Of a DNA stretch of 64,000 nt, positions 4,421 to 53,712 are shown piece by piece. A model generated the notes under the pieces. The model was not told where the DNA came from and ran no database searches. It saw only the letters and a list, made by a program, of their open reading frames with translations. The number at the start of each line of letters is the position of its first letter. Position 1 is the first letter of the stretch. Source of the stretch: Promethearchaeia archaeon. Lineage in GTDB: Archaea > Asgardarchaeota > Lokiarchaeia > Sigyniarchaeales > SOKP01. The stretch is from NCBI GenBank assembly GCA_029856125.1, contig JAHQWJ010000148.1, positions 8,588-72,587 on the forward strand, in the 5' to 3' direction. The translations under genes and the position numbers were made by a program.

Positions 4421-4422
4421 AC

Positions 4423-27168: not shown

Positions 27169-28425
27169 ATGGGTAATAAAGAAGAAAATGAATCATCGTC
27201 CAAGAAGATTTTGAAAGAAACAAAAGAAAATGGCGAAATAGCCATGCGAGAGAAGGAAGCTAAAGTTAGAGGGCTTTACGTGAAGATGTTGGAAGATGCC
27301 GCGAAGTATGCAGTGCAGTATGAGTTCTACGCAGAGGACATGAAGGATTTCCACGAAGTAGTGCAATGGAAGTTCGGTCCTATCAGAGGATATCAAGTAT
27401 TCGACGAAACAGAGTATTCATTCAAAATCGACGAAGAGGCTGAAGATCCGACCTTAATACTGGGGTGCAAGGATCTTGATCTGGCCTACCAGTTCCTCAA
27501 CGACGAAATCAGTCATTGGCCGGCCCTTCTGGGGACTAAGTTCTTGGTTGGCACAAAGGGCCCCGACGGGACTTATAAGGAAAAGAGAATTGGAAAGTTA
27601 ACTGGTTTTGCCCCCGGCAATGCCCCTAGGTTGAGTACCGCAAAAGAGAATGCCCCCCCCGAGCAAAAAAGATTGTCTTCTCGTCTGTTGAGAATACCCG
27701 TGTTTCGGCCGATCATGGAGCGAACCACAGATCCCGAGAACTCGAACGACGTTCGCATTCCAATCAATGAGTCCTTGGGTACATATGAGAACCAGTCGAT
27801 ACCGCTCGCAGTTCTCGAATACTTCATAAACAAGGCAAGTGACGTCTATATCTTCAATATGTGCCCGTGTCGCTCGCTCGCCAATTGCGAGAATTATGAC
27901 CATTCCATCGGATGCATGGCCCTGGGTAAGGGGGCCCTGAGGATGAATACCTTTGGAAGGATCGGTACCAAAGAAGAGGCATTGGAACGATCGCGACGTG
28001 CTGTTGCTGCTGGTCTCCTGCCTTCTCTGGGGAGAGTCAAATCCGATACGATCGTCTATAGGGCTTTGCCTGAACAGGGCGATCTGATGCATATTTGCTT
28101 CTGTTGCCCCTGTTGCTGTGTCGAGGGCTCTGGAAAGGACTCGCCAAGGTATCTAAGGCTGTGGCATCAGAAGATGGAGGGTGTGTCCGTCACGGTCAAT
28201 GAGGATCTCTGTAATGGATGCGAGCTATGCCTCGAGGTGTGCATATACGGTGGAATGGAGGTCATCGACCACATAGCCGTGATTGACCGGGAGGGCAAGG
28301 ATCACTGCAGAGGCTGCGGAAGGTGCGAGAGGGTATGCCCCACTGGAGCGATAACCATCACCATCGAGGATGATGGTGTGGAGAGGATGATTGCTCGCAT
28401 AGAGTCCTCCGTCGACGTCAGCTAG
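27169..28425 (+). CDS. Cys-rich Fe-S protein ('CPCR', 'CFCCPCCC', C-terminal 2x[4Fe-4S] ferredoxin domain); G+C-rich mosaic copy
   Basis: 418 aa, co-linear with 29835-31007. Motifs: 'CNGCELCLEVC' and 'CRGCGRCERVCP'. The gene body is markedly richer in G+C than the rest of the window. Confidence 0.7.
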   Translation: MGNKEENESSSKKILKETKENGEIAMREKEAKVRGLYVKMLEDAAKYAVQYEFYAEDMKDFHEVVQWKFGPIRGYQVFDETEYSFKIDEEAEDPTLILGCKDLDLAYQFLNDEISHWPALLGTKFLVGTKGPDGTYKEKRIGKLTGFAPGNAPRLSTAKENAPPEQKRLSSRLLRIPVFRPIMERTTDPENSNDVRIPINESLGTYENQSIPLAVLEYFINKASDVYIFNMCPCRSLANCENYDHSIGCMALGKGALRMNTFGRIGTKEEALERSRRAVAAGLLPSLGRVKSDTIVYRALPEQGDLMHICFCCPCCCVEGSGKDSPRYLRLWHQKMEGVSVTVNEDLCNGCELCLEVCIYGGMEVIDHIAVIDREGKDHCRGCGRCERVCPTGAITITIEDDGVERMIARIESSVDVS

Positions 28426-28500
28426 GGGGATGCCAGGTTGTCATAAAGCATATAAATGCTATATATAATAGGAATAGTTTTTAAGAAAAATGATGTGAAT

Positions 28501-29631
28501 TTATGGTTCAAATTTTTCTACGATTTTGGAAACTTTCTTTAACCTTCTCCCATCTCCAATGCACAATTCGTCGCTTATTCCGAGGATTAGGTTTGGAGAA
28601 AATAAGTCAAGGACTTTTTTTGTCAGGTCTATTAATCTCGATTCTTTAAATTCTCGCAAGAATAAGGTAGCTGGAATTCCGTCGACGAGTATTTTTCCAG
28701 AATCCCCTAATGCTCTTGCAATATCTTCCAAAGGCACATCTCCTAGAGGTGGTGGGGTTAACGCCTCGTATCCGTCAAAAGACATCGTGGAGAGATAGGG
28801 TAATAACTGTTTGAAAGAACCATCAATGTGAATGAAGGCAAACTTCCTTGCGTCGTGTAGTAATTTAACGCGGGTTTCATAATAATCCAAGAGGTATTTT
28901 TCAAAATATGGCGGAGACGATAAATTATGATCAATATTTTCTCCAAAATTTACGAGTTTTAAAGGGGATTTTGTTATCACTCGTTTATACTTCTTTAGAT
29001 CAATGGATTCGAGATGGTGAAAGAAATCCTCCATTTCATGCTTGTATTTTCGTAAAAAGATTATCGTTCTTTCAAAGCCGAGATAATTAAGAACGCATTT
29101 CATGTAAGGACTTCGAAAATAATAGCTTGTTGGGATGCCAAAACCTTCCATTTCCTTTTTAGCTTTCTCGTACATGACATTTGAGAAATTAAATTCAGTT
29201 TGATCCTCGAGATACATCATTACTTTAAGATCCTTAATTTTTTTGACGGGAAAATCAATTATTCGAGTATCTTTTTCAACATGAGATACTTCCCCTACCG
29301 GTGTTATCATTTTTATAAGATATGTTTTGTAGTTCAATCGTTTCCTAATTGTTTTTATTTGGTGATTCGGTTTTCTAGTTTCGTGAAATAAAGGATAACC
29401 AAAAGTTTCTTGAGGATATCGAATTGAACCATTAATGTCCTTATAGATTTCCTTGATATTTTTTCCGATGTACTCTTTTGGCACATATTTTTCAACGGCA
29501 GGGTATTTTTCGGGAGTAAGTGATTGAATTCTATTACTATTATACCAATACATTATTCGAGGTTGCCATACAATCCCATCGATGGATTCGTGTGCGAATG
29601 TCCGCAAAATTAATTTGGCAAAATCAATCAC
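28501..29631 (-). CDS. Uroporphyrinogen-decarboxylase (URO-D/MtaA)-fold family protein, divergent
   Basis: 376 aa. The C-terminal half 'FIHIDGSFKQLLPYL....DGYEALTPPPLGDV.LEDI....G..ILVDGIPATLF' resembles URO-D-family barrels. No H-x-C zinc site was seen. Confidence 0.4.
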   Translation of the reverse strand: MIDFAKLILRTFAHESIDGIVWQPRIMYWYNSNRIQSLTPEKYPAVEKYVPKEYIGKNIKEIYKDINGSIRYPQETFGYPLFHETRKPNHQIKTIRKRLNYKTYLIKMITPVGEVSHVEKDTRIIDFPVKKIKDLKVMMYLEDQTEFNFSNVMYEKAKKEMEGFGIPTSYYFRSPYMKCVLNYLGFERTIIFLRKYKHEMEDFFHHLESIDLKKYKRVITKSPLKLVNFGENIDHNLSSPPYFEKYLLDYYETRVKLLHDARKFAFIHIDGSFKQLLPYLSTMSFDGYEALTPPPLGDVPLEDIARALGDSGKILVDGIPATLFLREFKESRLIDLTKKVLDLFSPNLILGISDELCIGDGRRLKKVSKIVEKFEP

Positions 29632-29766
29632 TTTAGCAAATTAGGACCGGATAGAATATAAAGTTACTTTATAAGGATACTGTATTTTTATTTTTGAACC
29701 TTTGATTTTCTGGAAATTATTCGCTCTAACTCAAGAAATCTTTTTGAAGTAAAACCAAGTCTGAAG

Positions 29767-29834
29767 AATTAAATTTATAATATTTCACCTCATATTATTT
29801 ATTAATTTTAATTAGGAAATATTAAAGTGGGAAA
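29767..29834 (+). promoter_or_regulatory. Conserved upstream region shared with 27101-27168 (TATA-like 'AAATTTATAA')
   Basis: See 27101-27168. Confidence 0.35.
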
Positions 29835-31007
29835 ATGGTAGAAAATAAAGCTGAAATTGAATCATTGTTTAAAAATATGCTAAAAGAAACTGAAAAAAAC
29901 GCTCCAAAAGACGCGATTTATCAGGAGGACATTAAAACTATCGGAACGCTTAAAGTCCAGTGGAAGATTTGTGGTATTTTGGGATATCAAATCTTCGAGC
30001 AAGATAAAGTCTCCTACAAATTTGGAGAAAAATTAGAAAAGCCAGATATATCGTTAGTTATTAGAGATAGCGAGATATCACTCACTTTCTTAAAGGGAGA
30101 ACTCTTTGAATTTGATTACGGCCCGGCTTATGGCGGTAATTTTAAAATCAATCAAACTATCGGATGGAAAGAGATTGAAAAAGAAACGGGTAAAAAAAAT
30201 GCTAGGATAAATAAACCTTTCCTGACAGCCCGATTTAACAAAGAAAAAGAATACCATCCTTATGTCTTATCAAAAATACCTATTTTTAGAAAACTTGTAA
30301 CACAACGAGTATCAGAAGATGATTTTGGAGCATTTATACCTATCAATAAAGCTCTTGGAACATATGAAAGTCAAATCATTCCTCTCAAGGTTTTTAAACA
30401 TTTTATTGATAAAGCGAGTAATATTGTCAAGATGAATGACTGTCCTTGTAGAACATACCATGAATGTAAAGATCACAATCGTGATCTAGGATGTATGCAC
30501 ATGGGTAATGATACGTTAAATTTCCCTTCACCCCATTTCAGGAGTAAAGTTATTTCGAAGGAGGAAGCCTTAGAACATGTTAGACTTTGCATTGAGGACG
30601 GTTTAATTCCATTACTCGGTAGAGTAATGGATGAAGCTGAGGGGTTTGGAGTTCCAGATACGGGACATTTCTTATCAATGTGTTTTTGCTGTCCTTGTTG
30701 CTGTATAGATGGTACTATCGTACAAAATGCCTCAAAAGGTCTAACTACGATTTTTAAAAGGATGGAGGGTATCACTGTGAAAGTTGACGAAGACCTTTGT
30801 GTTGGTTGTGAAGAATGTTTCGAGGTTTGTGTCTTTAATGGGATGGAAATGATTGATAACAAGGCTGTAGTGAACCAGGACAACTGCTTAGGCTGTGGCA
30901 GATGTGAAACCACTTGTCCTAACGAAGCCATCTCTATAACTATTACAGATCTTAGTTACGTTGATAATTTGATTAAAAAATTAGAAGCCCATGTTGATGT
31001 TACCTAA
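29835..31007 (+). CDS. Cys-rich Fe-S protein ('CPCR', 'CFCCPCCC', 2x[4Fe-4S] ferredoxin domain); AT-rich native copy
   Basis: 390 aa with 'CVGCEECFEVC' and 'CLGCGRCETTCP'. The N-terminal ~130 aa look SCP2-like ('KPDISLVIRDSEISLTFLKGEL'). Confidence 0.7.
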   Translation: MVENKAEIESLFKNMLKETEKNAPKDAIYQEDIKTIGTLKVQWKICGILGYQIFEQDKVSYKFGEKLEKPDISLVIRDSEISLTFLKGELFEFDYGPAYGGNFKINQTIGWKEIEKETGKKNARINKPFLTARFNKEKEYHPYVLSKIPIFRKLVTQRVSEDDFGAFIPINKALGTYESQIIPLKVFKHFIDKASNIVKMNDCPCRTYHECKDHNRDLGCMHMGNDTLNFPSPHFRSKVISKEEALEHVRLCIEDGLIPLLGRVMDEAEGFGVPDTGHFLSMCFCCPCCCIDGTIVQNASKGLTTIFKRMEGITVKVDEDLCVGCEECFEVCVFNGMEMIDNKAVVNQDNCLGCGRCETTCPNEAISITITDLSYVDNLIKKLEAHVDVT

Positions 31008-31161: not shown

Positions 31162-31584
31162 ATGATCTCAATTCAAAAAGGGGAGGATTTGCTCTCAATT
31201 TCCTTAAGCACCATCTTAAACCATAGGAAAGACGAGCCCGAATTTCAAAAACTTGTTATCGATTGGAACAAGAAGATTCTAATTGATATTGAAGATTTCT
31301 ATCCACTTGAAATTATATTTCATCGCAACGAGATTAAATTTAAAGTAAACGATATCGATAAAAAAGTAGATCTTAAAGTTAAAATGAACATTTACACCCT
31401 TTTAGATTTGGCTTACAGAAGACTAAACCCTGTAAAAGCCGTTTTTCAGCGTAAATTAAGATTTAAGGGATTGTTGAAATTTAGAATTTTATTAAAATTT
31501 ATGAACATTTTTCTGAAAAGCATGCAAATGGTTGCTTCAGACCCTAACAATAAATATTACGAATTAAATAAAGATATTAGGTAA
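31162..31584 (+). CDS. SCP2 (sterol-carrier-protein-2)-like small protein
   Basis: 140 aa with 'VDLKVKMNIYTLLDLAYRRLNPVKAVFQRKLRFKGLL', which fits the SCP2 pattern. Paralog of 34273-34695. Confidence 0.5.
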   Translation: MISIQKGEDLLSISLSTILNHRKDEPEFQKLVIDWNKKILIDIEDFYPLEIIFHRNEIKFKVNDIDKKVDLKVKMNIYTLLDLAYRRLNPVKAVFQRKLRFKGLLKFRILLKFMNIFLKSMQMVASDPNNKYYELNKDIR

Positions 31585-31602
31585 AATGGTGAAAGAAAAC
31601 AT

Positions 31603-33078
31603 ATGACTGCAACAAAGGAAAGAAATTTGTACGAGAAAATAAGGAAGGAGAATGTGTTTAAAAAATTAGGAGAAATATTTGGAAGTAAAAACGTCACAGA
31701 TAAATCTGTAGATTTATATCCTTACTCATACGATATGACCGAATGCGAAGCACACATGCCTGATTTTGTAGTTATTCCTGAAAATTCAGCTCAATTAATC
31801 GAACTAGTAAAATTTTGTAATCAAAATTCCATACCAATTGTACCTTACATATCTGGGAATAACGTTGGAGGTTTGACAATTCCAGAATACGGGGGTGTTG
31901 TCGTCGATTTTAGTAAGAAAATGAACAGAATTCTCCACATCAATGAAAATATGATGTATGCTCTCTTAGAGCCAGGAGTTACCTTCGGAGAATTAAAGAA
32001 ACAGTTAGACGAACATTATCCACATCTAAGATATAGTTACCCATTTGCTCCACCTTACGCAGGAGTGGTTGGAAATGTAATTTTGAGCGGTATGAATAAT
32101 CTTTCGTGTAAACTTGGTTCAATGGGAGATTCTATCAATGGACTAGAAGTTATAACTGCTGATGGCGAACTTATTCGAATTGGTTCTTGCTTTTATGGTA
32201 AGGATACCGCAGATGATGATTCTTGGTGGAGCAGATATCCGATGCCAGATTTAATGGGTTTATTTATCAATTGGCAAGGTATGACGGGTTTAGTAACCAA
32301 ATGCGCCGTACAGTTATGGCCAAATCCCCCTCTTAAGAAAACCTATCTTGGAATTGTTTTCGGCTTACCTGATATCGCACCGGTCATAAGAGAAGTTGGG
32401 AGGACTGAAATTGTTGATGACATTTCAGCAGTAAGTATTGAAGTTGTAAAAATGGCTGTAGAACTTCCAGAACCGGTAAAAATACCTGGTGAACCAGATT
32501 TTGCTGCACTTTTTTCTATTTCTGGGAAAACTGAAAGCCTTTTCAAAGCTAAGGAGGAATATTTAAAGCTAACTATAGAAAATTTGAAGAAAAAGGGCAT
32601 AAAAGTTCTTTTAGTTGATGCTGACGAGTTTACAAAGTTATTCAGTTTAAGAGTAAGATGCCATTTAGATCTACCAGCAGTCATTTTATCGTTAGTAGAA
32701 TATTCGGGGTTAACATGGTTTGGATCCTATGCTCCAACACATAAACTCGAAGATTTAATACCTCAAGTGAACGACCTGTTTATAAAATACAAAGTTCCTC
32801 CATTTATTTACATGAAAATAATGAAGCATTCTCATTATGGAATTTTTCGACCTATCCTTAGATATAATAAATACAAAGATGAGGAAAACATTCATAGCTT
32901 ACTAAACGAGATTGCAGAACTATGCATCGCCGAGGGCTGTATTCCTTATAAGACGCCTGCGTGGATGACGGAAAAAATGCGTGAGATAATCAATCCAGGT
33001 TGGCAAAAATTATTCGACAAAATTAAAAATTGCATTGATCCAAATAAAATATTTAATCCCGGAAGATGGAATACATGA
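31603..33078 (+). CDS. FAD-linked oxidase (PCMH/GlcD-type)
   Basis: 491 aa with 'FVVIPENSAQLIELVKFCNQNSIPIVPYISGNNVGG' and C-terminal 'IDPNKIFNPGRW'. Close paralog of 34706-36181. Confidence 0.75.
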   Translation: MTATKERNLYEKIRKENVFKKLGEIFGSKNVTDKSVDLYPYSYDMTECEAHMPDFVVIPENSAQLIELVKFCNQNSIPIVPYISGNNVGGLTIPEYGGVVVDFSKKMNRILHINENMMYALLEPGVTFGELKKQLDEHYPHLRYSYPFAPPYAGVVGNVILSGMNNLSCKLGSMGDSINGLEVITADGELIRIGSCFYGKDTADDDSWWSRYPMPDLMGLFINWQGMTGLVTKCAVQLWPNPPLKKTYLGIVFGLPDIAPVIREVGRTEIVDDISAVSIEVVKMAVELPEPVKIPGEPDFAALFSISGKTESLFKAKEEYLKLTIENLKKKGIKVLLVDADEFTKLFSLRVRCHLDLPAVILSLVEYSGLTWFGSYAPTHKLEDLIPQVNDLFIKYKVPPFIYMKIMKHSHYGIFRPILRYNKYKDEENIHSLLNEIAELCIAEGCIPYKTPAWMTEKMREIINPGWQKLFDKIKNCIDPNKIFNPGRWNT

Positions 33079-33138: not shown

Positions 33139-34170
33139 ATGATCGAAACAAATATAACAAAAATGTTTGGGATTAAACATCCTATATTTAGCGCTCCAAT
33201 GGGTCCCTTTTTTACCCGCGATTTAGCTCTAGCTGTCAGTGAAGCCGGGGGATTAGGAGTGTTATCAAACGTGAATATAGCTGGTACAGATCCCGTTAAG
33301 GAACATAAAGCAAGCCTTGAACACATGATTGAACATACTGATAAACCGTTCGGTCTTAATATCCTAACATCTCGGAATAATCCTGGAGTGAGACAAATGG
33401 TCAGATCATTACCAAGAATAGTCATGGGTAATGTAAAAATGCGCGATCAGTGTAAATATTGGCTGACTTCGGCAGGTTCTTCAAGAGTTCTCGCAGAATC
33501 GAAAAGTTTTATAGAATTAAGAGAGAATTCAGAAGTTAAACACTTTCACGTTGCTCCAGCTGTATGGTTGGCTCAGAAATGTATAGCTTCAAAAGTAGAT
33601 GGAATAGTGGTGACTGGTACTGAAGGTGGAGGTCATCAATCGTATGAGAGAGTTAGTACTCTTGTTCTACTACAACAGATTAATGAGAAATTCCCTGATT
33701 TGCCAAAGATTGCTTGTGGGGGTTTTGCTACTGGAGAGTCTTTAGCTGCAGCACTTTCGTTAGGTGCAGGAGCAGTAGCAATGGGATCAAGATTTATAGC
33801 TTCTAAGCAGAGCGAATTTCACGAAAAATACAAAGCGTTAATTCCCCCTGGAAATCCGCAAGATACAGGGCTCTATACTGGATCGTTCGGTCCTATTCGG
33901 TTGTATAAAAACGAATACGCATTATCGCATCCTGCGCCCAGTAGTAAAGAGGAAATGATCGCTTACGAAAACTCTATATCTCCAGAACAAAGAGCAAAAG
34001 ATATGGGTGCCTATGATAGGGTATACAATGGGGATATTAATACTGGAGCTGTTTTACTAGGTCAATCAATAGGAATTATTGATAGTATAGAGAATGTCAA
34101 TGATATTATTGAACGAATAATGAAAAACGCTGAAACTGCTATTAGAAGAAATAGTTCCATGTTAAAATAA
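33139..34170 (+). CDS. Nitronate monooxygenase / FabK-like FMN enoyl reductase family protein
   Basis: 343 aa with 'MFGIKHPIFSAPMGPF..DLALAVSEAGGLGVLS' and 'GTEGGGH'. Confidence 0.75.
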   Translation: MIETNITKMFGIKHPIFSAPMGPFFTRDLALAVSEAGGLGVLSNVNIAGTDPVKEHKASLEHMIEHTDKPFGLNILTSRNNPGVRQMVRSLPRIVMGNVKMRDQCKYWLTSAGSSRVLAESKSFIELRENSEVKHFHVAPAVWLAQKCIASKVDGIVVTGTEGGGHQSYERVSTLVLLQQINEKFPDLPKIACGGFATGESLAAALSLGAGAVAMGSRFIASKQSEFHEKYKALIPPGNPQDTGLYTGSFGPIRLYKNEYALSHPAPSSKEEMIAYENSISPEQRAKDMGAYDRVYNGDINTGAVLLGQSIGIIDSIENVNDIIERIMKNAETAIRRNSSMLK

Positions 34171-34272: not shown

Positions 34273-34695
34273 ATGCTTAATATAGAATTCCCGGATGATT
34301 TAATTTCTATATCGTTGTATAATGTTTTCAGTTCGAGGAAGGACGATAGAAAATTTATAAAACACGCGAAAGATTGGAATACAAAAATAGTACTTCATAT
34401 CGAGCCTTTCTATCCCGTGACAGTAATCTTCGACGGTAGTAATATAAGGTTTGAAAGGAAAGAATATCCAAAACCAGACATGAAGGTTAAAATTCATATC
34501 AACACCATGCTTGATATCGCTAACGATAGGTTAAATCCTTTTTTTGCTATTGAAGAAAAAAAAATGGAAATTGAAGGATTAGGTGAAGATAGCGAAAAAA
34601 TTATGCGGTTTTTCAATATTTTTGTCTTATCTATGCAGATGGTAGCTCAAGAGCCTAATGTGAATTATTTTGAATTAAACAAGAATACCAGGTGA
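34273..34695 (+). CDS. SCP2-like small protein
   Basis: 140 aa, co-linear with 31162-31584 ('KPDMKVKIHINTMLDIANDRLNPFFAIEEKKMEIEGL'). Confidence 0.5.
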   Translation: MLNIEFPDDLISISLYNVFSSRKDDRKFIKHAKDWNTKIVLHIEPFYPVTVIFDGSNIRFERKEYPKPDMKVKIHINTMLDIANDRLNPFFAIEEKKMEIEGLGEDSEKIMRFFNIFVLSMQMVAQEPNVNYFELNKNTR

Positions 34696-34705: not shown

Positions 34706-36181
34706 ATGACAGCAACAAAACAACGAAATGTGTTTGAAAAAATTTCAAAAGATAATGTTTATTCTAAATTAGTCGAGATTTTTGGTAGCGATTATGTTAC
34801 TGATAAAAATGTTGACTTGTACCCCTATTCTCAAGATATGACTGAGAACAAACCTCACATGCCCGATTTTGTGGTTATCCCTGAAAATAAAGAGCAATTA
34901 GTGGAACTAGTTAAGTTTTGTAACGAATATTCAGTTCCATTAGTTCCCTATACCACGGGAAATAATGTTGGAGGGCTTACAATCCCTGATTATGGCGGTA
35001 TTATTGTAGATTTTGGAAAAAGGATGAATAAAATCTTACATGTAGATGACAATATGATGTACGCCCTCTTAGAACCCGGTGTTACCTTTGGTCAACTTAA
35101 GAAACACCTAGATGAGAATTTCCCAAGTCTAAGATATAGCTACCCAAACGCGCCCCCTTACTCAGGTGTAGTTGGAAACGCCTTATTAAGCGGCATGACA
35201 AATTTGGGTGCAAAAATCGGCTCAATGGCAGATGGCATTAATGGTCTTGAGGTTATAACCTTTGATGGAACTGTATCTCGAATTGGATCGTGCTTCTACG
35301 GAAATGATAAATCAGAAGACGATAGCTGGTGGTGTAGATATCCGATGCCTGACCTTATGGGATTATTCGTCAATTGGCAAGGCATGACCGGCTTGATAAG
35401 CAAATGCGCCGTTCAATTATGGCCAAAAGAACCAATTGAAAAACCTCAGCTCGTTGTCTTTTTTGGGTTAACAGATTTAGGTCCTTTTTTGAGAGAGGTA
35501 GGTAGAGCAGATATTGTTAACGATGTTGCTGCATTTTCAGTGGAGGTTGCTAAAATGGAGGTTGGAATACCAGAACCCGTAAGATATCCTGGAGAACCTC
35601 TTTATACTGCCGTAATGCCGATGACGGCAAAAACTGAAAACCAAATGAATGCCAAATTAGAAATTCTTAACGATATAATTGAAAAGCTAAATAAAGAAGG
35701 AACTGATATTCATTTAATTGATTATAACGAGTTTGCTAAGCTTTTTGGTCTAAAAGCTCTCAATATTTACAACTTACCATCACAGATTCTTTCCTTACAC
35801 GAATATAGCGGACTTACGTGGTTTGGCGCCTATGCTCCCTCTCATAAATTTGAAGAATTAATTGAGAAAACAGATGCGTTGTATCATAAACATGGGGTAC
35901 CCCCGTTTAACTATCTTAAGATTATGAAAGGAGGTCATTATGGTATATTTAGACCTATCTTTCGGTTTAAGAAATTTACAGATCAAGACAAAATCGTTAA
36001 GTTATTGGAAGAAATAGCTGATGTTTGTATAGACTTAGGGTGTATACCTTATAAAACGCCATCGTGGTTGACTGCAAAATTGCGTAAGAAAATCAATCCA
36101 GGATGGATTAGTCTTTTTGAAAAGATAAAACATTGTATGGATCCTAATAATATATTTAATCCAGGAAGGTGGAACACATAA
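34706..36181 (+). CDS. FAD-linked oxidase (PCMH/GlcD-type)
   Basis: 491 aa, same length as and co-linear with 31603-33078. Confidence 0.75.
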   Translation: MTATKQRNVFEKISKDNVYSKLVEIFGSDYVTDKNVDLYPYSQDMTENKPHMPDFVVIPENKEQLVELVKFCNEYSVPLVPYTTGNNVGGLTIPDYGGIIVDFGKRMNKILHVDDNMMYALLEPGVTFGQLKKHLDENFPSLRYSYPNAPPYSGVVGNALLSGMTNLGAKIGSMADGINGLEVITFDGTVSRIGSCFYGNDKSEDDSWWCRYPMPDLMGLFVNWQGMTGLISKCAVQLWPKEPIEKPQLVVFFGLTDLGPFLREVGRADIVNDVAAFSVEVAKMEVGIPEPVRYPGEPLYTAVMPMTAKTENQMNAKLEILNDIIEKLNKEGTDIHLIDYNEFAKLFGLKALNIYNLPSQILSLHEYSGLTWFGAYAPSHKFEELIEKTDALYHKHGVPPFNYLKIMKGGHYGIFRPIFRFKKFTDQDKIVKLLEEIADVCIDLGCIPYKTPSWLTAKLRKKINPGWISLFEKIKHCMDPNNIFNPGRWNT

Positions 36182-38781: not shown

Positions 38782-39282
38782 ATGAAGTATAAAAGAAATC
38801 AATATTCTGAAGGAGTAAGCGTTTGCTCCTTCATTATAGCAGGTATTTTAATTTATATGGGAACTAACGATATATTTGTACCCCTTTGGGCAGGTACGGA
38901 TATAAATTGGTGGGGGCTTGTCTGGATTGGCATTGCAGCAGCAATAATAATAGGACAGATCGCAGCGTTGGCTAACAAAAGTAAGTTAAGAAACGCAGTT
39001 TTATACGAATACGAGGAACATCCGGAAGCAACCATCGATCAAATTAGTCAAAACACGGGAATTACGATAAGAGACGTACAAGCCATAGTATTAGACCTAA
39101 AAGCAAATGGCTTATTACGAGGTAAATTCTCTTCTACTACAGGACAAATGACGCATGCAGATATTATAAAAAAACCCCAAGAAGAAGTTTCAGAAGGAAA
39201 AGTAGTTTATTGTCCTAATTGTGGAACCGCCAAAGTTAAAGAATCGGCTATTTTTTGCTCGTATTGCGGAACTAAATTATAA
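38782..39282 (+). CDS. Membrane protein with wHTH-like middle region and C-terminal zinc ribbon
   Basis: 166 aa with two hydrophobic helices, 'IDQISQNTGITIRDVQAIVLDLKANGLL' and 'CPNCGT....CSYCGTKL'. Confidence 0.5.
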   Translation: MKYKRNQYSEGVSVCSFIIAGILIYMGTNDIFVPLWAGTDINWWGLVWIGIAAAIIIGQIAALANKSKLRNAVLYEYEEHPEATIDQISQNTGITIRDVQAIVLDLKANGLLRGKFSSTTGQMTHADIIKKPQEEVSEGKVVYCPNCGTAKVKESAIFCSYCGTKL

Positions 39283-46169: not shown

Positions 46170-47198
46170 TTAATCTATCGACTCCCCTAAAGCTAATCGA
46201 CAGAGATCGCTAAGGATATAATTTTTTAACCCTTTTCGGCCAACTTTAGAGCCTAAGCTTTCCATACACATAGAACAATTGTAAACGCATGCTTCAGCAT
46301 CATGTTCTATCATATCATCTACGTTATCGCTTTGAGTTTTGCGCCCTAAAGCTTTTTTACCAAGAGTGGCAAATAATCCACCGCAGCATAAAGCGTTTTC
46401 TCGATCGTATTCCCTCTCTACCCTCTCAACACCTATTAATTCGCAAATTTTATCTACCCATTCGTCAACTTCAGGGAGAAAACGATTTGAGCAGGATCTT
46501 TGATAGGCTATTTTCATGCCTAGTTGTTTAACAGCAGATTTATGCTCTTTTAAATAGTTATAGAGATATTCGTAGATGTGAACAGGTTTAAAGCCAGGTG
46601 GAAGATCAATGTTATTTCTAGGACAAAAGGAAGCGTAAAATCCATAGCACTCGTCGTGAAAACATATCATTTCTTTAATACCTTGAGCTTTGATATTTGC
46701 CAATATCATTGGAGCCCTTTCTTTGATAATAGAGTCTCTTCCGTAATGATGATACATTAGGTTGCAAAAAAAGTCAAGGCCACTCACATATTGTAAATTT
46801 TCAAACAACTGCCCTTCCATATTTTTAGCATTTAATTTACCCAATCCACATTTATTTAACACTGGTTTATCAGAGTCAATTTCTTTTAATCTTACTTGAT
46901 CGTGGGGAGCAAATCTATTTACTGTACTCTCAATAATACCAGGGTTTATATTTAACGAATTGTATTTCTCGTGCAATTCTGTTATTAGATCGAAGGGATG
47001 AGATTCATAAGGACAATATTCCTCGCATGCAAAACAAGTAACACAGTCGGACAACACTCGAGATTCTTCCCCGTTGATCATTTTAGTTTTTTCTACTCGC
47101 GCTTCTTCAATATCGCTAAATTCCATCCATTGACAGCGAGTCAAACAATCTATATTTTCACATTTATCACAATTAGATTCGTCGAAAATTTTCTTCAC
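46170..47198 (-). CDS. HdrD-like (Fe-S) CCG-domain protein
   Basis: 342 aa with 'CVTCFACEEYCPY' and the C-terminal 'CCGG' block. Paralog of 47282-48316. Confidence 0.55.
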   Translation of the reverse strand: MKKIFDESNCDKCENIDCLTRCQWMEFSDIEEARVEKTKMINGEESRVLSDCVTCFACEEYCPYESHPFDLITELHEKYNSLNINPGIIESTVNRFAPHDQVRLKEIDSDKPVLNKCGLGKLNAKNMEGQLFENLQYVSGLDFFCNLMYHHYGRDSIIKERAPMILANIKAQGIKEMICFHDECYGFYASFCPRNNIDLPPGFKPVHIYEYLYNYLKEHKSAVKQLGMKIAYQRSCSNRFLPEVDEWVDKICELIGVERVEREYDRENALCCGGLFATLGKKALGRKTQSDNVDDMIEHDAEACVYNCSMCMESLGSKVGRKGLKNYILSDLCRLALGESID

Positions 47199-47281: not shown

Positions 47282-48316
47282 TTAGTATTCCAACTTTTCC
47301 CCTAACGCAAGTCGAGCCAAGTCGCTAATGAAATAGCACTTCATTCCTTTAGCTGTAACTTTCCTTTCTAACGTATCTTTACACATAGGACAATTGAATA
47401 TACAAACCTCAGCACCATGGTCTACCATATCCTGAACGTTGTCATTTTGAGTTTTACGAACGAGATTTTTATGACCCCTCATTGCAAAGGGTGCAGCGCA
47501 ACATAAACCATTTTCTCTATCGTATTTCCTAGCAACCCGTTCTACTCCGATAAGTTCGCATATGTTATCAAGGATTTTATCAGTTTCGGTTACATAACGA
47601 TTGGAACAGTTACGCTGATAAGCGGCTTTAAAGTTTAATTTTGTTATTTCAGATTCGTGATCCTTAAGATAATTATATACATATTCAAATATATGGACGG
47701 GTTTAAAAGGCACTTCAATGTTATTCCTTTGACAATATGAAGTATACAGTCCATAGCATTCGTCATGCCAACAGATGACCTCAGTATCCTTCTTAACACC
47801 AGTTTTTTTGAAGTTTTCAAGAATCAACGGAACTCTTTCCTTGATAATGGAAGGTGTGGCCGTGTGTTGATACATTAATTGACAAAAGAAATGTAAACCA
47901 CCAACTGATTGTAGATCATCAAACATTGGTCCTTTCATTTCTTTTGCATTCGTTTTAGGGAACGCGCACTTATCTAAAATTGGCTTTTCAGGATCAATCG
48001 GGCGTGGTACAAATTCTCCCTTTGCTTTAAACGTATCGATTGCATTTTGAGCAATTGCAGGTAAAATATTTTGAGAACTGTACTTTTCCTGAAGCTCATT
48101 GATTAAGTCAAAAGGATGCGAATTATATGTACAATACTCATCACAGGAAAAACATAGCATACACTCCTTCAAAATACGACAATCCTCATCCTCATTAATC
48201 AATTTAGCAACTTCTTTTCTAGCTGCGTCAATGCTCTCAAAAATGATCCATTGACACTTCATCATACAAGCAACTGTTTTACAATCTTTACAATGCGATT
48301 TATCAAACATATTCAT
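47282..48316 (-). CDS. HdrD-like (Fe-S) CCG-domain protein
   Basis: 344 aa, co-linear with 46170-47198 ('CMLCFSCDEYC', 'LCCAAPF', 'CPMC'). Confidence 0.55.
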   Translation of the reverse strand: MNMFDKSHCKDCKTVACMMKCQWIIFESIDAARKEVAKLINEDEDCRILKECMLCFSCDEYCTYNSHPFDLINELQEKYSSQNILPAIAQNAIDTFKAKGEFVPRPIDPEKPILDKCAFPKTNAKEMKGPMFDDLQSVGGLHFFCQLMYQHTATPSIIKERVPLILENFKKTGVKKDTEVICWHDECYGLYTSYCQRNNIEVPFKPVHIFEYVYNYLKDHESEITKLNFKAAYQRNCSNRYVTETDKILDNICELIGVERVARKYDRENGLCCAAPFAMRGHKNLVRKTQNDNVQDMVDHGAEVCIFNCPMCKDTLERKVTAKGMKCYFISDLARLALGEKLEY

Positions 48317-48409: not shown

Positions 48410-48925
48410 TTATTCTTCAATAGTAAATTCCCAAGCGCAATAATAGTTATCTGGATGTTGATCAGGGGGGCAACATATACACTTAGTTTTTATTCTTGGA
48501 TCTATGGTCTTAGCGAAATCTTCGTATTCTATAATTCCTACAGGTTTACAAGGGAAATCCGGAAGTTTTCTTCTTTTTCTAGCAGATTGCACCCGACAAT
48601 CATTCATCCGAAAAACACAACGATTTTCAGAAATCTCTACTGTTTCTTGTATGTTTATATTGGCGTAAACTCTATAATTTAGCGCCTTAACCAATGCTGA
48701 AATTCCTCCATTTTCTTGAATATTGAACCGTCTCATGATTCGTTTTGCTTCAACTATAGTAAATCTTTTCCACTGTGTAGCATCAAGTTCAATGGCTTTC
48801 TCCAATCCAAATTCTCTTTCAACGGCTTGGAACCAAGTTCCATCAATTGCGAGCCAATTCTTGCTTAAATCTTCAATATAGTCTATCAGTTCTTCTTTGG
48901 TTAATCCTTCTAAATCTTTTCTCAT
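48410..48925 (-). CDS. Hypothetical Cys-containing protein
   Basis: 171 aa with the C-terminal cluster 'C..........CICCPPD....YYCAWEF'. No family recognised with confidence. Confidence 0.4.
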   Translation of the reverse strand: MRKDLEGLTKEELIDYIEDLSKNWLAIDGTWFQAVEREFGLEKAIELDATQWKRFTIVEAKRIMRRFNIQENGGISALVKALNYRVYANINIQETVEISENRCVFRMNDCRVQSARKRRKLPDFPCKPVGIIEYEDFAKTIDPRIKTKCICCPPDQHPDNYYCAWEFTIEE

Positions 48926-48949: not shown

Positions 48950-50662
48950 TTAGTTTTTTTCCTTCCACAATTTACGCAATAAATGTGCTGCCATTTTAGG
49001 TCTTCTATCTCGAGTAAACACACCTTTATAGTTTGTCGATCCCATTCGAGTAATTCCTTGAGATGTTTTAAAGTCACACATATTCCATACATGTTCTCCA
49101 ATTACATAAGGTTTACTCCGACAGACATCAATATATTTTTTTATGAATTCTGTTTGGTATTCTTCGCTAAACATTTCAGGCGGTTGAGAATGCCATCCAG
49201 GAATTGTGTCAGCTCCAAATTCACTAAGAATAATAGGTTTACGATGTTTTTCATATAAATTATCCATTTCTTTTGAAAGGAGTTCGCAAGCTTCATCTAT
49301 GTTTCCTGGTTGCAAATACCATCCATAATATCGATTGATACATAATACTTCGCAGAATTCAAAAGCTTTTTCTTTTACACCCATCATATTTACAACAGTT
49401 ACAGGCCTTGTGTTATCTAAATCTTTTGTCTTGTCGTATAATTTTCTAAAGAATTCCCCAGATTTCAAGCTATTATGGGGTTCGTTTGCTAAACTCCACA
49501 TTATAACGCTTGGATGGTTTTTATCTCTCTTTATTAATACTTCAATGAATTGATCGCATAATTCTTGTTGCCTCTCAATTACATCTTTTCTTAACGTAAG
49601 ACCTACCGCAGGAATTTCGTCAATGACTAAAAAACCAAGGCGATCTGCTAATTCCATCATTTGTTCTGAGTAAGGATAATGCGATGTTCGAAAGGAATTA
49701 GCTCCGATCCAATTCATCAAAGAGTAGTCTTTGATTATTACTGCTGGAACATACCCTCGCCCTGTAATTGGAAAATCCTCGTGACGCCCAAATCCTGTTA
49801 AATAAATGGGTTTACCATTTAATAACAACTTGTCTCCTTTCACTTCAATAGTCCGAATTCCTACTTTAAGCGAATAAGAATCGATTATAGTATCTGCTTT
49901 TACGATCTCAACTATTAGATCGTATAAATTAGGTGTTTCTGGATTCCAAAACTTCGCTTGTTTTACTTCTAAAGTCATTTTTTGAATATTAAGCTCAATT
50001 TTCGATGTATTAGTTATCTCTGAACCAAATCCTTTTAGAGATAGATTCACATAGGCATCATTTAAGCCAACAGTTTCTAAAGTAACATCTAATATTCCCG
50101 TAGTGTCTTTTATAGATGGTCTAACAGTTATGTCTCTTAATCCTTCGTTAGGAATAGCGTAAAGCAAGACTGGTCGATGAATTCCGCAAAAGGGATAAAA
50201 ATCAAAATTAGTTTGCGGATTGTTCATTGGACGCCCGCGAGGTGGCACATGATTATCTGATAACCTCCCATCCACTCTAACTACTAATAAATTATCTTCC
50301 GAGACTATCTTGTCAGATATCTCGTACTCAAAGGGTAGATGTCCTCCCTCGTGATGTCCTACCACCTCTCCATTTAACCTTACATCAGAGAGGTAATTAA
50401 CCGATCCAAACCTAATCATGATTTTCTTTTTATCCCATTCCCTTGGCATCATAAATTTCAGTTGATACCAGGCAGGTCCTAAAAAATCGCGGTCGTCAGC
50501 AAATTGATCGTTCCAACTGGCAGGTACAGCTATTGGACAGCCATTATTAAATCCCTTGGTCCAATTTTCTCCAACCCCTTTATCATCAGGATCAAAACGA
50601 AAATCCCAAAATCCAGATAGGTCTACAAAATGACGATTCTTATTTCTTTGCGGATAGAGCAT
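48950..50662 (-). CDS. Glycoside hydrolase family 2, beta-glucuronidase-like
   Basis: 570 aa. The N-terminus resembles E. coli UidA as I recall it ('L.G.W.F..D....G....W', 'AVPASWNDQFAD', 'WYQ'). Acid/base context 'WSLANEP' and nucleophile context 'ILSEFGADT'. Confidence 0.8.
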   Translation of the reverse strand: MLYPQRNKNRHFVDLSGFWDFRFDPDDKGVGENWTKGFNNGCPIAVPASWNDQFADDRDFLGPAWYQLKFMMPREWDKKKIMIRFGSVNYLSDVRLNGEVVGHHEGGHLPFEYEISDKIVSEDNLLVVRVDGRLSDNHVPPRGRPMNNPQTNFDFYPFCGIHRPVLLYAIPNEGLRDITVRPSIKDTTGILDVTLETVGLNDAYVNLSLKGFGSEITNTSKIELNIQKMTLEVKQAKFWNPETPNLYDLIVEIVKADTIIDSYSLKVGIRTIEVKGDKLLLNGKPIYLTGFGRHEDFPITGRGYVPAVIIKDYSLMNWIGANSFRTSHYPYSEQMMELADRLGFLVIDEIPAVGLTLRKDVIERQQELCDQFIEVLIKRDKNHPSVIMWSLANEPHNSLKSGEFFRKLYDKTKDLDNTRPVTVVNMMGVKEKAFEFCEVLCINRYYGWYLQPGNIDEACELLSKEMDNLYEKHRKPIILSEFGADTIPGWHSQPPEMFSEEYQTEFIKKYIDVCRSKPYVIGEHVWNMCDFKTSQGITRMGSTNYKGVFTRDRRPKMAAHLLRKLWKEKN

Positions 50663-50733
50663 TATAATTCCTCTTTATACGTTATAAATTACAAAAAACT
50701 TCTTGAAATATTAATATAATTGAATCCTCTCAA

Positions 50734-52023
50734 CTACAGTAAGGTCTGAACAAACATCGATATTTTGTCTTTAATAGCCTTTGCCGAGGTTATTCGGGCG
50801 TCTCCAACATCGAAATCAATGACCAACATAGGAATTCCTACTTCGTCCATGAGAGCTTCCCTTAACAGCTGGGGAACGCCTCCAAATTGCTTGCACGCAA
50901 TACTCTGTGTATAAATGAAGCAATCAGCGCTAAAATCTTTTGCCATTCTAATACAATCGTCTAAGAAGGGGTAATAAAACTCAGTTGATTGTTTTATCAT
51001 TGGCCAACCCATAGCTTTTCTGGCCATCTGATAAAATAGAGAATCTAAATCAGCTTTAATATCAACAGGATCTGATAAATTATAGTTAAAGATATCGAGT
51101 AAAACGCTCATCCCCATTTTACGATCCAACCATTCGCATAAAGAAATATCAAAGAAAGTAAGCATGTAAGGCCAGATTGATCTTATCTTTTCTTCGCCTC
51201 CATGATGTTCTTTGTTCTTGTATCTGGATTTTGCGATATCGAGTATCCTACGATAAAAAGAAATGTTTTCAGGAGTTCCAGAAATAATTATCGTTGCTGC
51301 CGCTGAAATTGGATTGAATATGTTTTCAATTGGGCTTGGAACAGCTTTTATTAAGTCAAACAATTCCATTCTTAATTTAGAAACTTCATTCTCTACTTCT
51401 AAAGCCTTTCTCATTTTATAAAAATCGGGTTCTTGACCGATTACTTCCCCCAGACTATGAAGACTTAGCTTTAATTGTTCACCGTAATATTTGTAACTTT
51501 TTTCATCGTGAAGAAAGGGCATATCAGCAATTATTAGAGGAATTTTTTTTTCAAATTGGAAAAAGGGATATGACGCACATGTGGAATCGCATGGCGCTGT
51601 TGGAGTGATAATTGCGTCAAAATGGTACAAGTTTTCTAAACTCATCCCCATTGCTCCTTTTTGTGCGGAACACGTATGAAAGGGATGACCCCAATTTCCA
51701 ATTACATCGTAATACTTTTCAACACCGTTCATTAATAGAGTTCCTAGAAAATAAGAAACTCCTTCAATGCATATAGGTACGCAATCAAAGCATTTAAGAT
51801 AATCAGCTTGAAATGCAAAGTGGTATCCAACGATGGGCACGCCTTCTCGAGCTTTTTCAATATCTCTCCTAACTACCGTTATCATTTCTTCCAAACCTAT
51901 ATTTAAAGAGGGAATTCCTGTTTCGGGAAGGATCTTTTCTACTAACTCGTAGGTCGTTTCCATCGCGTTTAATAACATTTGATAAGGGATAATCCTATTT
52001 TCATTCTTACTTGTAGTATTCAA
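50734..52023 (-). CDS. 2-hydroxyacyl-CoA dehydratase family subunit (larger)
   Basis: 429 aa, homolog of 7929-9248 ('IRSIWPYMLTFFD' versus 'IRIAWPYTHVFFD'). Confidence 0.65.
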   Translation of the reverse strand: MNTTSKNENRIIPYQMLLNAMETTYELVEKILPETGIPSLNIGLEEMITVVRRDIEKAREGVPIVGYHFAFQADYLKCFDCVPICIEGVSYFLGTLLMNGVEKYYDVIGNWGHPFHTCSAQKGAMGMSLENLYHFDAIITPTAPCDSTCASYPFFQFEKKIPLIIADMPFLHDEKSYKYYGEQLKLSLHSLGEVIGQEPDFYKMRKALEVENEVSKLRMELFDLIKAVPSPIENIFNPISAAATIIISGTPENISFYRRILDIAKSRYKNKEHHGGEEKIRSIWPYMLTFFDISLCEWLDRKMGMSVLLDIFNYNLSDPVDIKADLDSLFYQMARKAMGWPMIKQSTEFYYPFLDDCIRMAKDFSADCFIYTQSIACKQFGGVPQLLREALMDEVGIPMLVIDFDVGDARITSAKAIKDKISMFVQTLL

Positions 52024-52069
52024 AAATTCACATCTTTTTGTTTTATTTTTATTCTGAAATTTCTCTAAG

Positions 52070-53218
52070 CTAAATCATTTCTAAAAATGCTTCTATTCTT
52101 GTTTGAAGTCTAGTGGTATCTGCTTGGTAAAATTCGCGATCTAAATTTAATACTGGAATCTCTAAATCCTTTAACTCATGGACATATAACATGTTATCGC
52201 ACCCGTGTAGGTCGCAATTGTTTATTCTTTGTAAGATGACTCCATCAACCTTTGCTCTTTTAATTTCATTTTTTACAAAATCTAATCGTCGTTCGTGATC
52301 GTCCATCATTCTAGGGCAAGACATTCTGTAATACACTCGCTCGACTATGCTTCTTAGTGGATCGCGGTTGAAACCTAAATGAACATCGTCCAGGAAATTG
52401 CGAGTTCCAAAGCATAAAAAATCGCTAACAATTAAGGCTCCAGAATCTTCTATTAATCCAGTAAAATCAGTGCTGTCAACTTCACTTCCAACAAGCATGA
52501 TTCTTTTCGCGTTGGATTTAACACCTTCGCTTTCTTTTAAGGTGTTGATAATTCGTTCTAATTCCCGGTTAGCAGCTTCTTTGGGAATTGAATTGTTCGA
52601 CATTGATATCTGTAACGCTTCACTACCGGTAATTTTGGGAGCGTCAATAACTCTCATTTCGTGGATTTCCCGTAAAAGTTCACGATTCTTATTGTAGATG
52701 TTAATTGTTTCAAGTAAATCTTGATTAGTTATGGTTTCTAGATTAAATTTTTCTTCTAATTCAGTTTTTAATTCTTTTATCTCATCATAATACCATTCAA
52801 AGCCTTCATCCGTAATAACATGAGGGATAGAGTAGTAAAATTGAGAAGCTGGTTTGGGATAATCTTTTCTCCTAAATACTTTTAAATCGAAAAGTTCAAA
52901 CATTCGGCGAGAGTGATCGCAGGAATTACAAATCAAGAGACCATCCAAAAAATCATAGATACCTCTTAGAGCCATATCAAATGTTGCGCGAACAAAAGAG
53001 CATGTAAATCGTACCATATATACATCCGCCAGATTCGTTTCTGTATTCCCCGTTGCTCGTATTCGATATGGTAATAAATTCGCAGCATATAAGAGTTCAT
53101 CCGGGATATAAGTACAATAGTATCCTAAAACTTTCTTACCGTCTGCTAGCCATTCTGTTATGTAGGGATTAGATATTGAGTCTGAAATATGAAGAAATTG
53201 ATCGTTTTTTAAGCTCAC
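52070..53218 (-). CDS. 2-hydroxyacyl-CoA dehydratase family subunit (smaller)
   Basis: 382 aa, homolog of 6802-7923 ('GKKVLGYYCTYIPDELLYAANLLPYRI'). The GTG start overlaps the upstream stop (GTGA). Confidence 0.7.
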   Translation of the reverse strand: MSLKNDQFLHISDSISNPYITEWLADGKKVLGYYCTYIPDELLYAANLLPYRIRATGNTETNLADVYMVRFTCSFVRATFDMALRGIYDFLDGLLICNSCDHSRRMFELFDLKVFRRKDYPKPASQFYYSIPHVITDEGFEWYYDEIKELKTELEEKFNLETITNQDLLETINIYNKNRELLREIHEMRVIDAPKITGSEALQISMSNNSIPKEAANRELERIINTLKESEGVKSNAKRIMLVGSEVDSTDFTGLIEDSGALIVSDFLCFGTRNFLDDVHLGFNRDPLRSIVERVYYRMSCPRMMDDHERRLDFVKNEIKRAKVDGVILQRINNCDLHGCDNMLYVHELKDLEIPVLNLDREFYQADTTRLQTRIEAFLEMI

Positions 53219-53712
53219 GCAAATAAGCCTCCTTTGTAACTATAAACCTCGTGTTTTCCAATCATAAGACATCTTATTAGCTTAATGGCGGCTACATAGG
53301 ATCCTTTAATTTTTGCTTTACCGGGGATTATATACTTCATTAATTTTATTAAACTGAAAAGGTTGTTCTTAGAGCGAATCATGCTACTAATCACACCAAG
53401 GATTTTTTCTTCTTCGACAGTTATAATGAGCCTTGCTACTGGACTGTTAGCTTTTTCGGCACGACAGTCAAAATTTCCCCTTTCGGATGTAAGAATAAAT
53501 GTAATATATCCATCTAATTCGGCGAAATACATTTCTATTTCCTGGCCGTTATGTTTTCCTACTTTTTTAAATGGAGCGTCAAGCCCAAATAAATCTACTA
53601 ACATTTTTGCTAATCTTGCTATGGTTAATACTTTAGTTTCTCTTAATAAGTCGTCTGCTCTAGAATCAATGCTTGTCTTTTCTTGGTCTTCAATTTGACT
53701 AATAATAACCAC
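53215..53712 (-). CDS. Hypothetical protein, possibly SCP2-like
   Basis: 165 aa. 'YIIPGKAKIKGSYVAAIKLIRCL' fits the SCP2 C-terminal pattern. Confidence 0.35.
   Translation of the reverse strand: MVIISQIEDQEKTSIDSRADDLLRETKVLTIARLAKMLVDLFGLDAPFKKVGKHNGQEIEMYFAELDGYITFILTSERGNFDCRAEKANSPVARLIITVEEEKILGVISSMIRSKNNLFSLIKLMKYIIPGKAKIKGSYVAAIKLIRCLMIGKHEVYSYKGGLFA

Follow-up and report, generated by a model that had tools for sequence, protein, structure and literature searches.

Gene content of the locus

The sequence analysed here (the window) is a 64,000-nucleotide (nt) stretch, C148:8588-72587, of a 3.69-Mb Asgard archaeal genome, whose proteins have relatives that carry the names Lokiarchaeota or Promethearchaeota in public records. 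An original prediction, made from the sequence alone, had placed five SCP2-like modules in this region and had proposed that small lipid-binding carriers present substrates to otherwise soluble anaerobic enzymes. All five modules were recovered with graded certainty. Comparison of sequence profiles and structural models firmly assigns the SCP2 fold to four of them; a 165-amino acid (aa) open reading frame (ORF) is a probable fifth.

The five modules occur in three separate, individually conserved architectures. In the first, the gene for a free-standing 140-aa SCP2 protein ends 10-18 nt before that of a PchF-like flavoprotein; this pair is duplicated and is followed by genes for putative HdrD-like CCG and radical SAM/SPASM proteins. 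In the second, a Cys-rich 2x[4Fe-4S] protein, represented by two paralogs, bears a diverged SCP2 domain as its N-terminal part. In the third, a putative, strongly diverged SCP2-like protein of 165 aa heads a predicted pair of HgdAB/BcrBC-type radical Fe-S subunits. Each module is, as had been proposed, the first gene or domain of an enzyme set: gaps of 18 and 10 nt separate the 140-aa protein genes from the FAD enzyme genes, the 165-aa ORF overlaps the start of the HGD-D gene by 4 nt, and the remaining two modules are N-terminal fusions. The genes that form these architectures are listed below.

27169-28425 (+): Fe-S protein A, with an SCP2-like N-terminal domain, a Cys-rich middle part (CPCR...CFCCPCCC) and a 2x[4Fe-4S] ferredoxin domain
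27244..27750 (+): SCP2-derived N-terminal domain of Fe-S protein A
29835-31007 (+): Fe-S protein B, with the same architecture as A
29835..30329 (+): SCP2-derived N-terminal domain of Fe-S protein B
31162-31584 (+): 140-aa SCP2 protein 1 (PF02036, 39.7 bits)
31603-33078 (+): VAO/PCMH-family flavoprotein 1, PchF-like (FAD_binding_4 and FAD-oxidase_C)
33139-34170 (+): NMO/FabK-like FMN enzyme, between the two duplicated modules (PF03060, E 5e-40)
34273-34695 (+): 140-aa SCP2 protein 2 (PF02036, 27.3 bits)
34706-36181 (+): VAO/PCMH-family flavoprotein 2 (65% identity to flavoprotein 1)
36169-37359 (+): HdrD/GlpC/TfrB-like Fe-S protein with two CCG domains (PF02754 and Fer4_8)
37495-38544 (+): radical SAM/SPASM enzyme, closing the unit (PF04055 and PF13186)
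53215-53712 (-): probable SCP2-like protein of 165 aa, first gene of the HGD-D unit (hhalign against SCP2)
52070-53218 (-): HgdA/BcrB-like subunit of the HGD-D family (PF06050, E 7e-84)
50734-52023 (-): second HGD-D family subunit (PF06050, E 5e-42)

Comparative genomics was based on a phylum set of 301 sampled genomes, in which ORFs were simple six-frame calls. Most of these genomes belong to one family, and counts of loci are not counts of independent events.

The 140-aa SCP2 proteins and their flavoprotein unit

Both 140-aa proteins, which share 45% identity, exceed the gathering cut-off of PF02036 (21.3 bits), which bears out their earlier description as SCP2-like. SCP2 protein 1 also matches the UbiT model weakly (24.9 bits against a cut-off of 46.9 bits).

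Relatives of the 140-aa proteins are present in 51 of the 301 genomes. In 29 of 30 fetched loci, representing several genera, the flavoprotein gene is the next gene on the same strand and lies 5-25 nt from the SCP2 gene; the sole exception is a locus ended by the contig end. A CCG Fe-S gene is usually third in these loci, and it was found 3′ of the flavoprotein gene in L001 and L072-L075. The radical SAM/SPASM gene occupies the equivalent position in L001-L002 and partly in L003, so that it ends the unit wherever this position is readable (the window and L001-L003). In assembly GCA_029856105.1 the order SCP2, flavoprotein, CCG Fe-S protein and radical SAM/SPASM enzyme recurs amid otherwise different surroundings. 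The NMO-like FMN enzyme accompanies the second module in L053-L055 and L058.

Another gene pair was seen in the vicinity of such units. It encodes a CdhC-like protein of 253 aa and a CbiA/NifH/CooC-like ATPase (19975-20745 and 20777-21538, both on the minus strand), and it adjoins the SCP2-flavoprotein-CCG unit also in L001, L072, L073 and L074, one of which represents a different family.

The window flavoproteins combine a FAD_binding_4 domain with full-length similarity to PchF. Their nearest relatives of solved structure are the p-cresol methylhydroxylase (PCMH) subunit PchF and the vanillyl-alcohol and eugenol oxidases (VAO and EUGO), the substrates of which are hydrophobic 4-alkylphenols. 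The family profile aligned with PchF (1DII) over its full length (residues 19-488, E 1.5e-35), whereas D-lactate and glycolate dehydrogenases were matched at ~1e-17 to 1e-18. An ether-lipid enzyme, alkyl-DHAP synthase, was also considered; it scored 1e-11 to 1e-12 with the profile and was rejected as the closest relative (overall E 1e-7 to 1e-12, compared with 1e-35 for PCMH).

Tyr449 and Lys450, invariant in the flavoprotein family, align with Tyr473 and Arg474 of PchF. The position of PchF Tyr95 falls in a deletion, and Tyr384 aligns with a valine that is followed by a tyrosine two residues later. We take Tyr95, Tyr473 and Arg474 of PchF to be the phenolate-binding triad and Tyr384 to be the site of covalent FAD attachment. 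The CCG protein encoded at 36169-37359, which matches the NCBIfam models TfrB, LdhH and GlpC below their cut-offs, is likely to be the electron outlet of the flavoproteins.

Fe-S proteins with SCP2-derived N-terminal domains

Fe-S proteins A and B are 39% identical overall and 33% identical in their N-terminal domains. Family libraries recognise only the C-terminal 2x[4Fe-4S] domain (in protein A, Fer4 families cover residues ~340-400 only), and a Pfam scan of both N-terminal domains (the first ~165 residues) returned no match. The proposed SCP2 character of these N-termini was confirmed by structural modelling, by stand-alone intermediates that match PF02036 and by profile-profile alignment.

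Residues 1-165 of Fe-S protein B were aligned with those of 28 relatives and submitted to AlphaFold2, which gave a confident model (predicted local distance difference test score, pLDDT, 86; predicted template modelling score, pTM, 0.79). In a Foldseek search of the PDB its best match was AF1534 (3cnu/3bn8), at E 8.6e-4, probability 1.0 and a TM score of 0.47-0.48 on the target. Further top matches were the SCP2 domain of the alkylsulfatase SdsA1, UbiJ-SCP2, human SCP2 and MFE-2. Among the 19 best PDB matches, all those with a recognisable description were SCP2 folds or enzymes with an SCP2-like domain. The model agrees moderately, apart from one inserted hairpin, with the alpha/beta architecture of SCP2, which comprises N-terminal helices, a sheet of five strands and a C-terminal helix. 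A sequence search of the PDB with the N-domain profile found no SCP2 structure.

A phylum-wide search with the N-domain profile showed that two other genera encode the domain as a stand-alone ORF of 128-129 aa. Four such proteins match the N-domain hidden Markov model (HMM) at E 1e-21 to 1e-25, and PF02036 was found in all three that were scanned (46-63 bits); one relative also weakly matches Alkyl_sulf_C. Fe-S protein A is matched at E 1e-35 to 1e-37 by the N-domain HMM and at E 5e-13 by a canonical SCP2 HMM into which the stand-alone relatives had been incorporated. When the N-domain family was aligned by hhalign with a canonical SCP2 profile from which the SCP2 proteins of the window had been left out, the probability was 97% (P 9e-11). 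The stand-alone proteins retain the C-terminal motif 'G-E-x-D-x-T-S-A-Y-M-S-G-x-L-x-I-E-G', which is degraded to 'G-E-L-F-E-F-D-Y-G-P-A-Y-G-G-N-F-K-I' in the fused domains.

In genera g4 and g6 (L067-L070) the stand-alone relatives are encoded in conserved tandem pairs, each comprising two distinct small SCP2-like proteins of 129 and ~133 aa, as exemplified by L067 4061-4450(-) and 4462-4863(-).

The number of SCP2 modules varies within the Fe-S family. Members without the module have 271-289 aa (C82 of this genome; L071), those with one module ~390-420 aa, and those with two tandem copies ~540 aa. An accessory add-on domain behaves in this way. SCP2-fused members were detected in 14 of the 301 genomes. 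Up to 12 copies of the family are present per genome, most of them within a single region of one contig (G267:C111:93-143 kb; G252:C65:12-39 kb), and the expanded copies alternate with copies that have no N-domain or a double one.

Approximately 12 other paralogs with Cys-rich and ferredoxin regions in this genome were considered as possible SCP2 carriers and rejected. They possess a different N-terminal domain, with zero SCP2 signal and only weak winged-helix-type matches. The middle domain of the Fe-S family carries the conserved motifs CPCR...C...GC and CFCCPCCC, and no sequence relative of it was found in Pfam, NCBIfam or PDB.

Relatives of the Fe-S proteins elsewhere adjoin MFS transporters and sugar-acid or glycoside enzymes, and an MFS homolog lies beside Fe-S family genes in L035 and L036. 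In L036 an 85% ortholog of protein A is placed next to a 69% ortholog of the window MFS protein, together with two further family members.

The 165-aa protein and the HGD-D unit

The HGD-D pair at 50734-53218 encodes members of the HgdAB/BcrBC family, whose radical enzymes are activated with ATP. The overlap of its first gene with the 165-aa ORF is consistent with translational coupling. The 165-aa family was identified in 52 of the 301 genomes; an HGD-D alpha-type gene lies directly 3′ of the 165-aa gene in 29 of 30 loci, including those of relatives only 45% identical. In L072, which represents another family, a 27%-identical relative heads two HGD-D genes. These are followed by two different BcrAD_BadFG ATPase genes (G165:C11:140000-159900, 3423-7857), an arrangement corresponding to the layout of a four-subunit class I benzoyl-CoA reductase (BCR) and not to that of HgdAB with HgdC.

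The SCP2-like nature of the 165-aa protein, as originally suggested, stood in part: hhalign supports it in the correct register, but no significant library match was obtained and the structural model is poor. An exhaustive profile search yielded 56 representatives of the family at 50% clustering. Weak PF02036 matches occur in 4 of 37 near-full-length members (best E 0.0084), which makes this the most recurrent weak family. The resulting deeper alignment gave hhalign probabilities of 82% (P 1.1e-5, 102 columns) and 77% (P 2e-5, 91 columns) with two canonical SCP2 profiles, in register with the motif 'G-K-x-K-I-K-G-S'. In the same test the Pfam-confirmed 140-aa family, used as a positive control, scored 85% (P 6e-6), and the unrelated Cys-rich middle domain, used as a negative control, 0.3%. 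The first, shallow alignments of the module families, composed of relatives with >50-60% identity, had given probabilities of 0.4-1.5%, which indicates that deeper sequence sets are needed. Searches of PDB sequences with both profiles of the family found no SCP2 structure.

The 165-aa ORF might instead be a family-specific small subunit of an HgdAB/BcrBC-type enzyme with some other fold. This would agree with the absence of a significant match in the family libraries, with the low confidence of the AlphaFold model (pLDDT 41, alignment of 32 sequences) and with Foldseek E values of at least 0.19. It agrees less well with the hhalign P values of 1-2e-5, which equal that of a Pfam-confirmed SCP2 family, with the recurrence of PF02036 among the weak matches, and with the fact that even the poor model retrieves almost only SCP2 folds, although this last result was given little weight because of its non-significant E values. 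We therefore consider a different fold unlikely, and the 165-aa protein is probably SCP2-like.

No activating ATPase gene adjoins the HGD-D pair at 50734-53218. The nearest one, a BcrAD_BadFG activase gene at 9267-10037, is adjacent to a second HGD-D pair (6802-10037, plus strand) and may also serve the first. Next to the second HGD-D pair lies a second FAD_binding_4 and CCG pair (10090-12754, minus strand).

Genome-wide census of SCP2 modules

A genome-wide count of SCP2 genes, proposed with the original prediction, was carried out. Ten PF02036 matches exceed the cut-off, and addition of the cryptic modules (the two Fe-S N-domains, the 165-aa ORF, a fourth C49 gene, a C38 gene, a C112 protein and a sub-threshold C51 gene) raises the total to ~17 in 3.69 Mb. 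At this density 0.12 modules are expected per 26.5 kb, so the clustering of the five exceeds chance (Poisson P(>=5) = 2e-7; P(>=3) = 3e-4 after collapsing duplicated pairs).

The genome contains 10 FAD_binding_4 paralogs, mostly paired with a CCG protein, and three HGD-D alpha paralogs. Among these, only the copies in the window units have an SCP2 partner; both pairs near the left end of the window, 6802-10037 and 10090-12754, are without an SCP2 gene. The existence of such SCP2-free paralogous sets fits an optional substrate-handling accessory.

The three architectures could also share no common logic, being unrelated families of an old fold brought together by nothing more than local duplication and inherited synteny. 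Recent tandem duplication did indeed give rise to two of the five modules, the three families show no detectable mutual sequence similarity, and SCP2 genes elsewhere in this genome adjoin many kinds of enzyme. However, three modules in 26.5 kb remain significant after duplicates are collapsed. Moreover, 32 genomes contain both the SCP2-flavoprotein and the 165-aa-ORF/HGD-D unit, and in 11 of them, representing five genera and two families, the two units share a contig at a distance of 7-46 kb; this compares with a chance expectation of ~3% per genome, although shared ancestry inflates the count. A purely coincidental assembly is thus quite improbable.

The neighbours of the other SCP2 genes were tallied descriptively, as follows.

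C49: Peptidase_U32 and UbiE-like methyltransferase; four SCP2 genes
C111: GDSL lipase and geranylgeranyl reductase; GFO/IDH/MocA oxidoreductases, divergent
C16: GDPD; enoyl-CoA hydratase and acyl-CoA dehydrogenase nearby
C51: thiolase and DUF35 OB-fold protein
C81: glycerol-3-phosphate dehydrogenase
C63: sugar kinase and 2-hydroxyacid dehydrogenase/aldolase fusion
C68: CBS and DUF1512 proteins
C38: CrtC-like hydratase

The notion that a redox or radical partner is the common rule did not hold, as SCP2 genes of the same genome adjoin genes for a GDSL lipase, GDPD and a thiolase with a DUF35 protein. The common theme is enzymes acting on hydrophobic substrates, about half of them redox enzymes, and not redox or radical chemistry per se.

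Two of these contigs have distinctive layouts. On C49 (6.4 kb) the genes lie at 931-2193(+), 2275-2709(-), 2997-3431(-), 3918-4487(+), 4663-5100(+) and 5361-5813(-). The four SCP2 genes closely surround one gene of the Peptidase_U32 family, to which UbiU and UbiV belong (E 8.5e-81), and one for a UbiE-like methyltransferase, a layout resembling the bacterial O2-independent UbiT/U/V pathway. On C38 (934-2393, plus strand) a 135-aa distant relative of the 140-aa SCP2 family (E 4e-6) is directly followed by a CrtC-like hydratase with a lipocalin domain. The ORF upstream of this SCP-like gene was considered as a possible FAD oxidase C-terminus and discarded, as no flavoprotein HMM or BLAST match was obtained.

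Comparison with known systems

SCP2 proteins are usually regarded as lipid shuttles, and the SCP2 domains of SdsA1 and MFE-2 hold the substrate for their own enzyme. In the alkylsulfatases SdsA1 and Pisa1 and in eukaryotic MFE-2 and SCPx, as in Fe-S proteins A and B, an SCP2 domain is covalently joined to an enzyme, there one acting on a hydrophobic substrate. However, it is C-terminal in those proteins and the enzymes are hydrolytic or act in beta-oxidation, whereas the window domain is N-terminal on an Fe-S protein. AF1534 of Archaeoglobus fulgidus, which heads the structural matches of the Fe-S N-domain with 23-25% identity across ~85 aligned columns, is similar in size to the stand-alone 129-aa relatives. 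It differs in being free-standing and of unassigned function, while the window domain is fused to an Fe-S protein and bears an inserted beta-hairpin.

PchF, VAO and EUGO, of the 4-phenol oxidising VAO/PCMH subgroup, are the closest solved relatives of the SCP2-linked flavoproteins, and the profile alignment with PchF is full-length. In PCMH, though, the redox partner is a cytochrome c subunit and not a CCG Fe-S protein, and we know of no SCP2 partner described for it. The two HGD-D subunits that follow the 165-aa ORF resemble HgdAB (with HgdC) and class I BCR (BcrABCD), but differ in having no adjacent gene for an activating ATPase. We are not aware of any described HgdAB or BCR system that begins with a small SCP2-like gene.

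The closest functional parallel is provided by the bacterial UbiT and UbiJ proteins, non-catalytic accessory factors of ubiquinone biosynthesis that have shown how an SCP2 protein can hold the substrate within an enzyme complex. The SCP2 factor UbiT works with the O2-independent 4Fe-4S enzymes UbiU and UbiV, a natural UbiT-UbiU fusion exists, and UbiJ binds ubiquinone intermediates, as has been proposed for UbiT in relation to UbiU/UbiV (bioRxiv 10.1101/587956). The window likewise contains small SCP2 proteins beside or fused to oxygen-independent Fe-S enzymes and genetically coupled to them. Its partner enzymes, however, are FAD_binding_4, CCG, Fer4 and HGD-D proteins, none of them a U32 protein, and no quinone pathway is evident in this Asgard host. 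By analogy, the window modules appear to resemble UbiT and UbiJ in function, without being members of these families.

Proposed role of the SCP2 modules

We suggest that the SCP2 modules of the window on balance act as accessory hydrophobic-ligand-binding units of their partner enzymes, a reading that draws on sequence profiles, structural models and analogy. The modules would be non-catalytic; their cavity would bind a poorly soluble substrate or intermediate and either hold it at the active site of the partner or hand it over. Fold, linkage and modularity emerge from the comparisons presented above. Binding and hand-over we infer from the behaviour of known SCP2 domains. The proposed logic of a carrier serving anaerobic enzymes is retained as far as the fold and the conserved gene order or fusion are concerned, but it applies to three separate families and not to one demonstrated system.

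Several observations weigh against this assignment. The 165-aa ORF gave no significant match in any library search. In the Fe-S N-domain, TM scores on the target are moderate (0.47-0.50) and an extra long beta-hairpin replaces part of the canonical C-terminal motif. Some relatives of the Fe-S proteins are encoded amid sugar-metabolism genes, with no obvious call for a lipid carrier. SCP2 domains can, in addition, serve dimerisation or complex assembly.

The last point leads to the alternative that the modules are structural, acting as assembly or dimerisation scaffolds or in membrane docking, with no substrate carriage. The hairpin would suit such a role, as would the ~25 residues by which the 140-aa proteins extend C-terminally of the Pfam match; UbiJ also organises a multiprotein complex (10.1101/587956). 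Yet the complete SCP2 core, including the cavity-lining strands, is kept in register, and a module number of 0, 1 or 2 suits ligand capture better than a fixed interface. A solely structural function consequently seems to us unlikely, and ligand binding remains the preferred explanation.

The genes surrounding the three architectures are relevant to the nature of the ligand:

23982-26901 (+): two MFS transporters (MFS_2/MFS_1), upstream of Fe-S protein A
28501-29631 (-): gene of unassigned function between Fe-S proteins A and B
38782-39282 (+): zinc-ribbon membrane protein
39416-40897 (+): carboxylesterase
47282-48316 and 46170-47198 (-): two CCG proteins
48410-48925 (-): DUF6125 protein
48950-50662 (-): GH2 glycosidase (glucuronidase-like)

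The original assumption of a lipid cargo is not implied by this context, which points as much to hydrophobic aglycones or aromatics. The PchF-like enzyme, the carboxylesterase, the GH2 enzyme and the MFS_2 transporters suggest that the ligand is at least as likely to be a phenolic or other apolar aglycone as a membrane lipid. Among possible substrates, the surrounding genes favour hydrophobic aglycones of phenolic or isoprenoid type over bulk membrane lipid.

More speculatively, the SCP2-tagged sets may all belong to a single conserved pathway of Lokiarchaeia that degrades poorly soluble compounds anaerobically, for example phenolic or isoprenoid aglycones set free from glycosides and esters. 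It would comprise an SCP2-assisted PchF-like oxidation with electrons passing to the HdrD-like protein, an SCP2-assisted HgdAB/BCR-like radical reaction, and the SCP2-fused Fe-S enzyme family, with up to a dozen copies in some genomes. We give such a pathway only a slim chance. If it existed, SCP2 modules would serve Asgard anaerobic metabolism generally as substrate chaperones and might mark an early step towards the lipid-transfer-protein repertoire of eukaryotes.

Novelty and other features

One SCP-2 homolog has been reported for the cultured strain MK-D1 (PMC12139934). In our literature search this homolog count was the only mention of SCP-2 in Asgard archaea, and no carrier-plus-enzyme description was found for them. 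The view that the arrangement is undescribed in archaea therefore holds for the Asgard group within the literature searched, but the same logic has already been described in bacteria (10.1101/587956). The principle is known from bacteria and eukaryotes and is not a new kind of system. By analogy, the locus looks like an archaeal version of the bacterial arrangement of helper protein and enzyme, here with three anaerobic enzyme types.

According to the searchable literature, two elements are new: a cryptic SCP2-derived domain fused to an unclassified, lineage-expanded Fe-S family, and a strictly conserved unit of SCP2, PchF-like flavoprotein and CCG Fe-S protein. An SCP2-like first gene of an HgdAB/BCR-like unit is probably a third. 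A fold can now be assigned to two families that the libraries leave unannotated, namely the Fe-S N-domain and, with the lesser certainty given above, the small first gene of the HgdAB/BCR-like unit. The modules offer a handle on the substrates, probably hydrophobic, of abundant Lokiarchaeial enzymes. Counts of lipid-transfer-type domains in Asgard genomes that rely on Pfam only are too low, since 10 of ~17 modules reach the cut-off here.

Two further features of the window were recorded. A gene at 18904-19947 (plus strand) encodes a 347-aa protein composed nearly entirely of leucine-rich repeats (LRR_4, E 3e-53). The region 24001-28000 is the 4-kb bin with the highest G+C content of the window (0.377, compared with 0.31-0.36 elsewhere).

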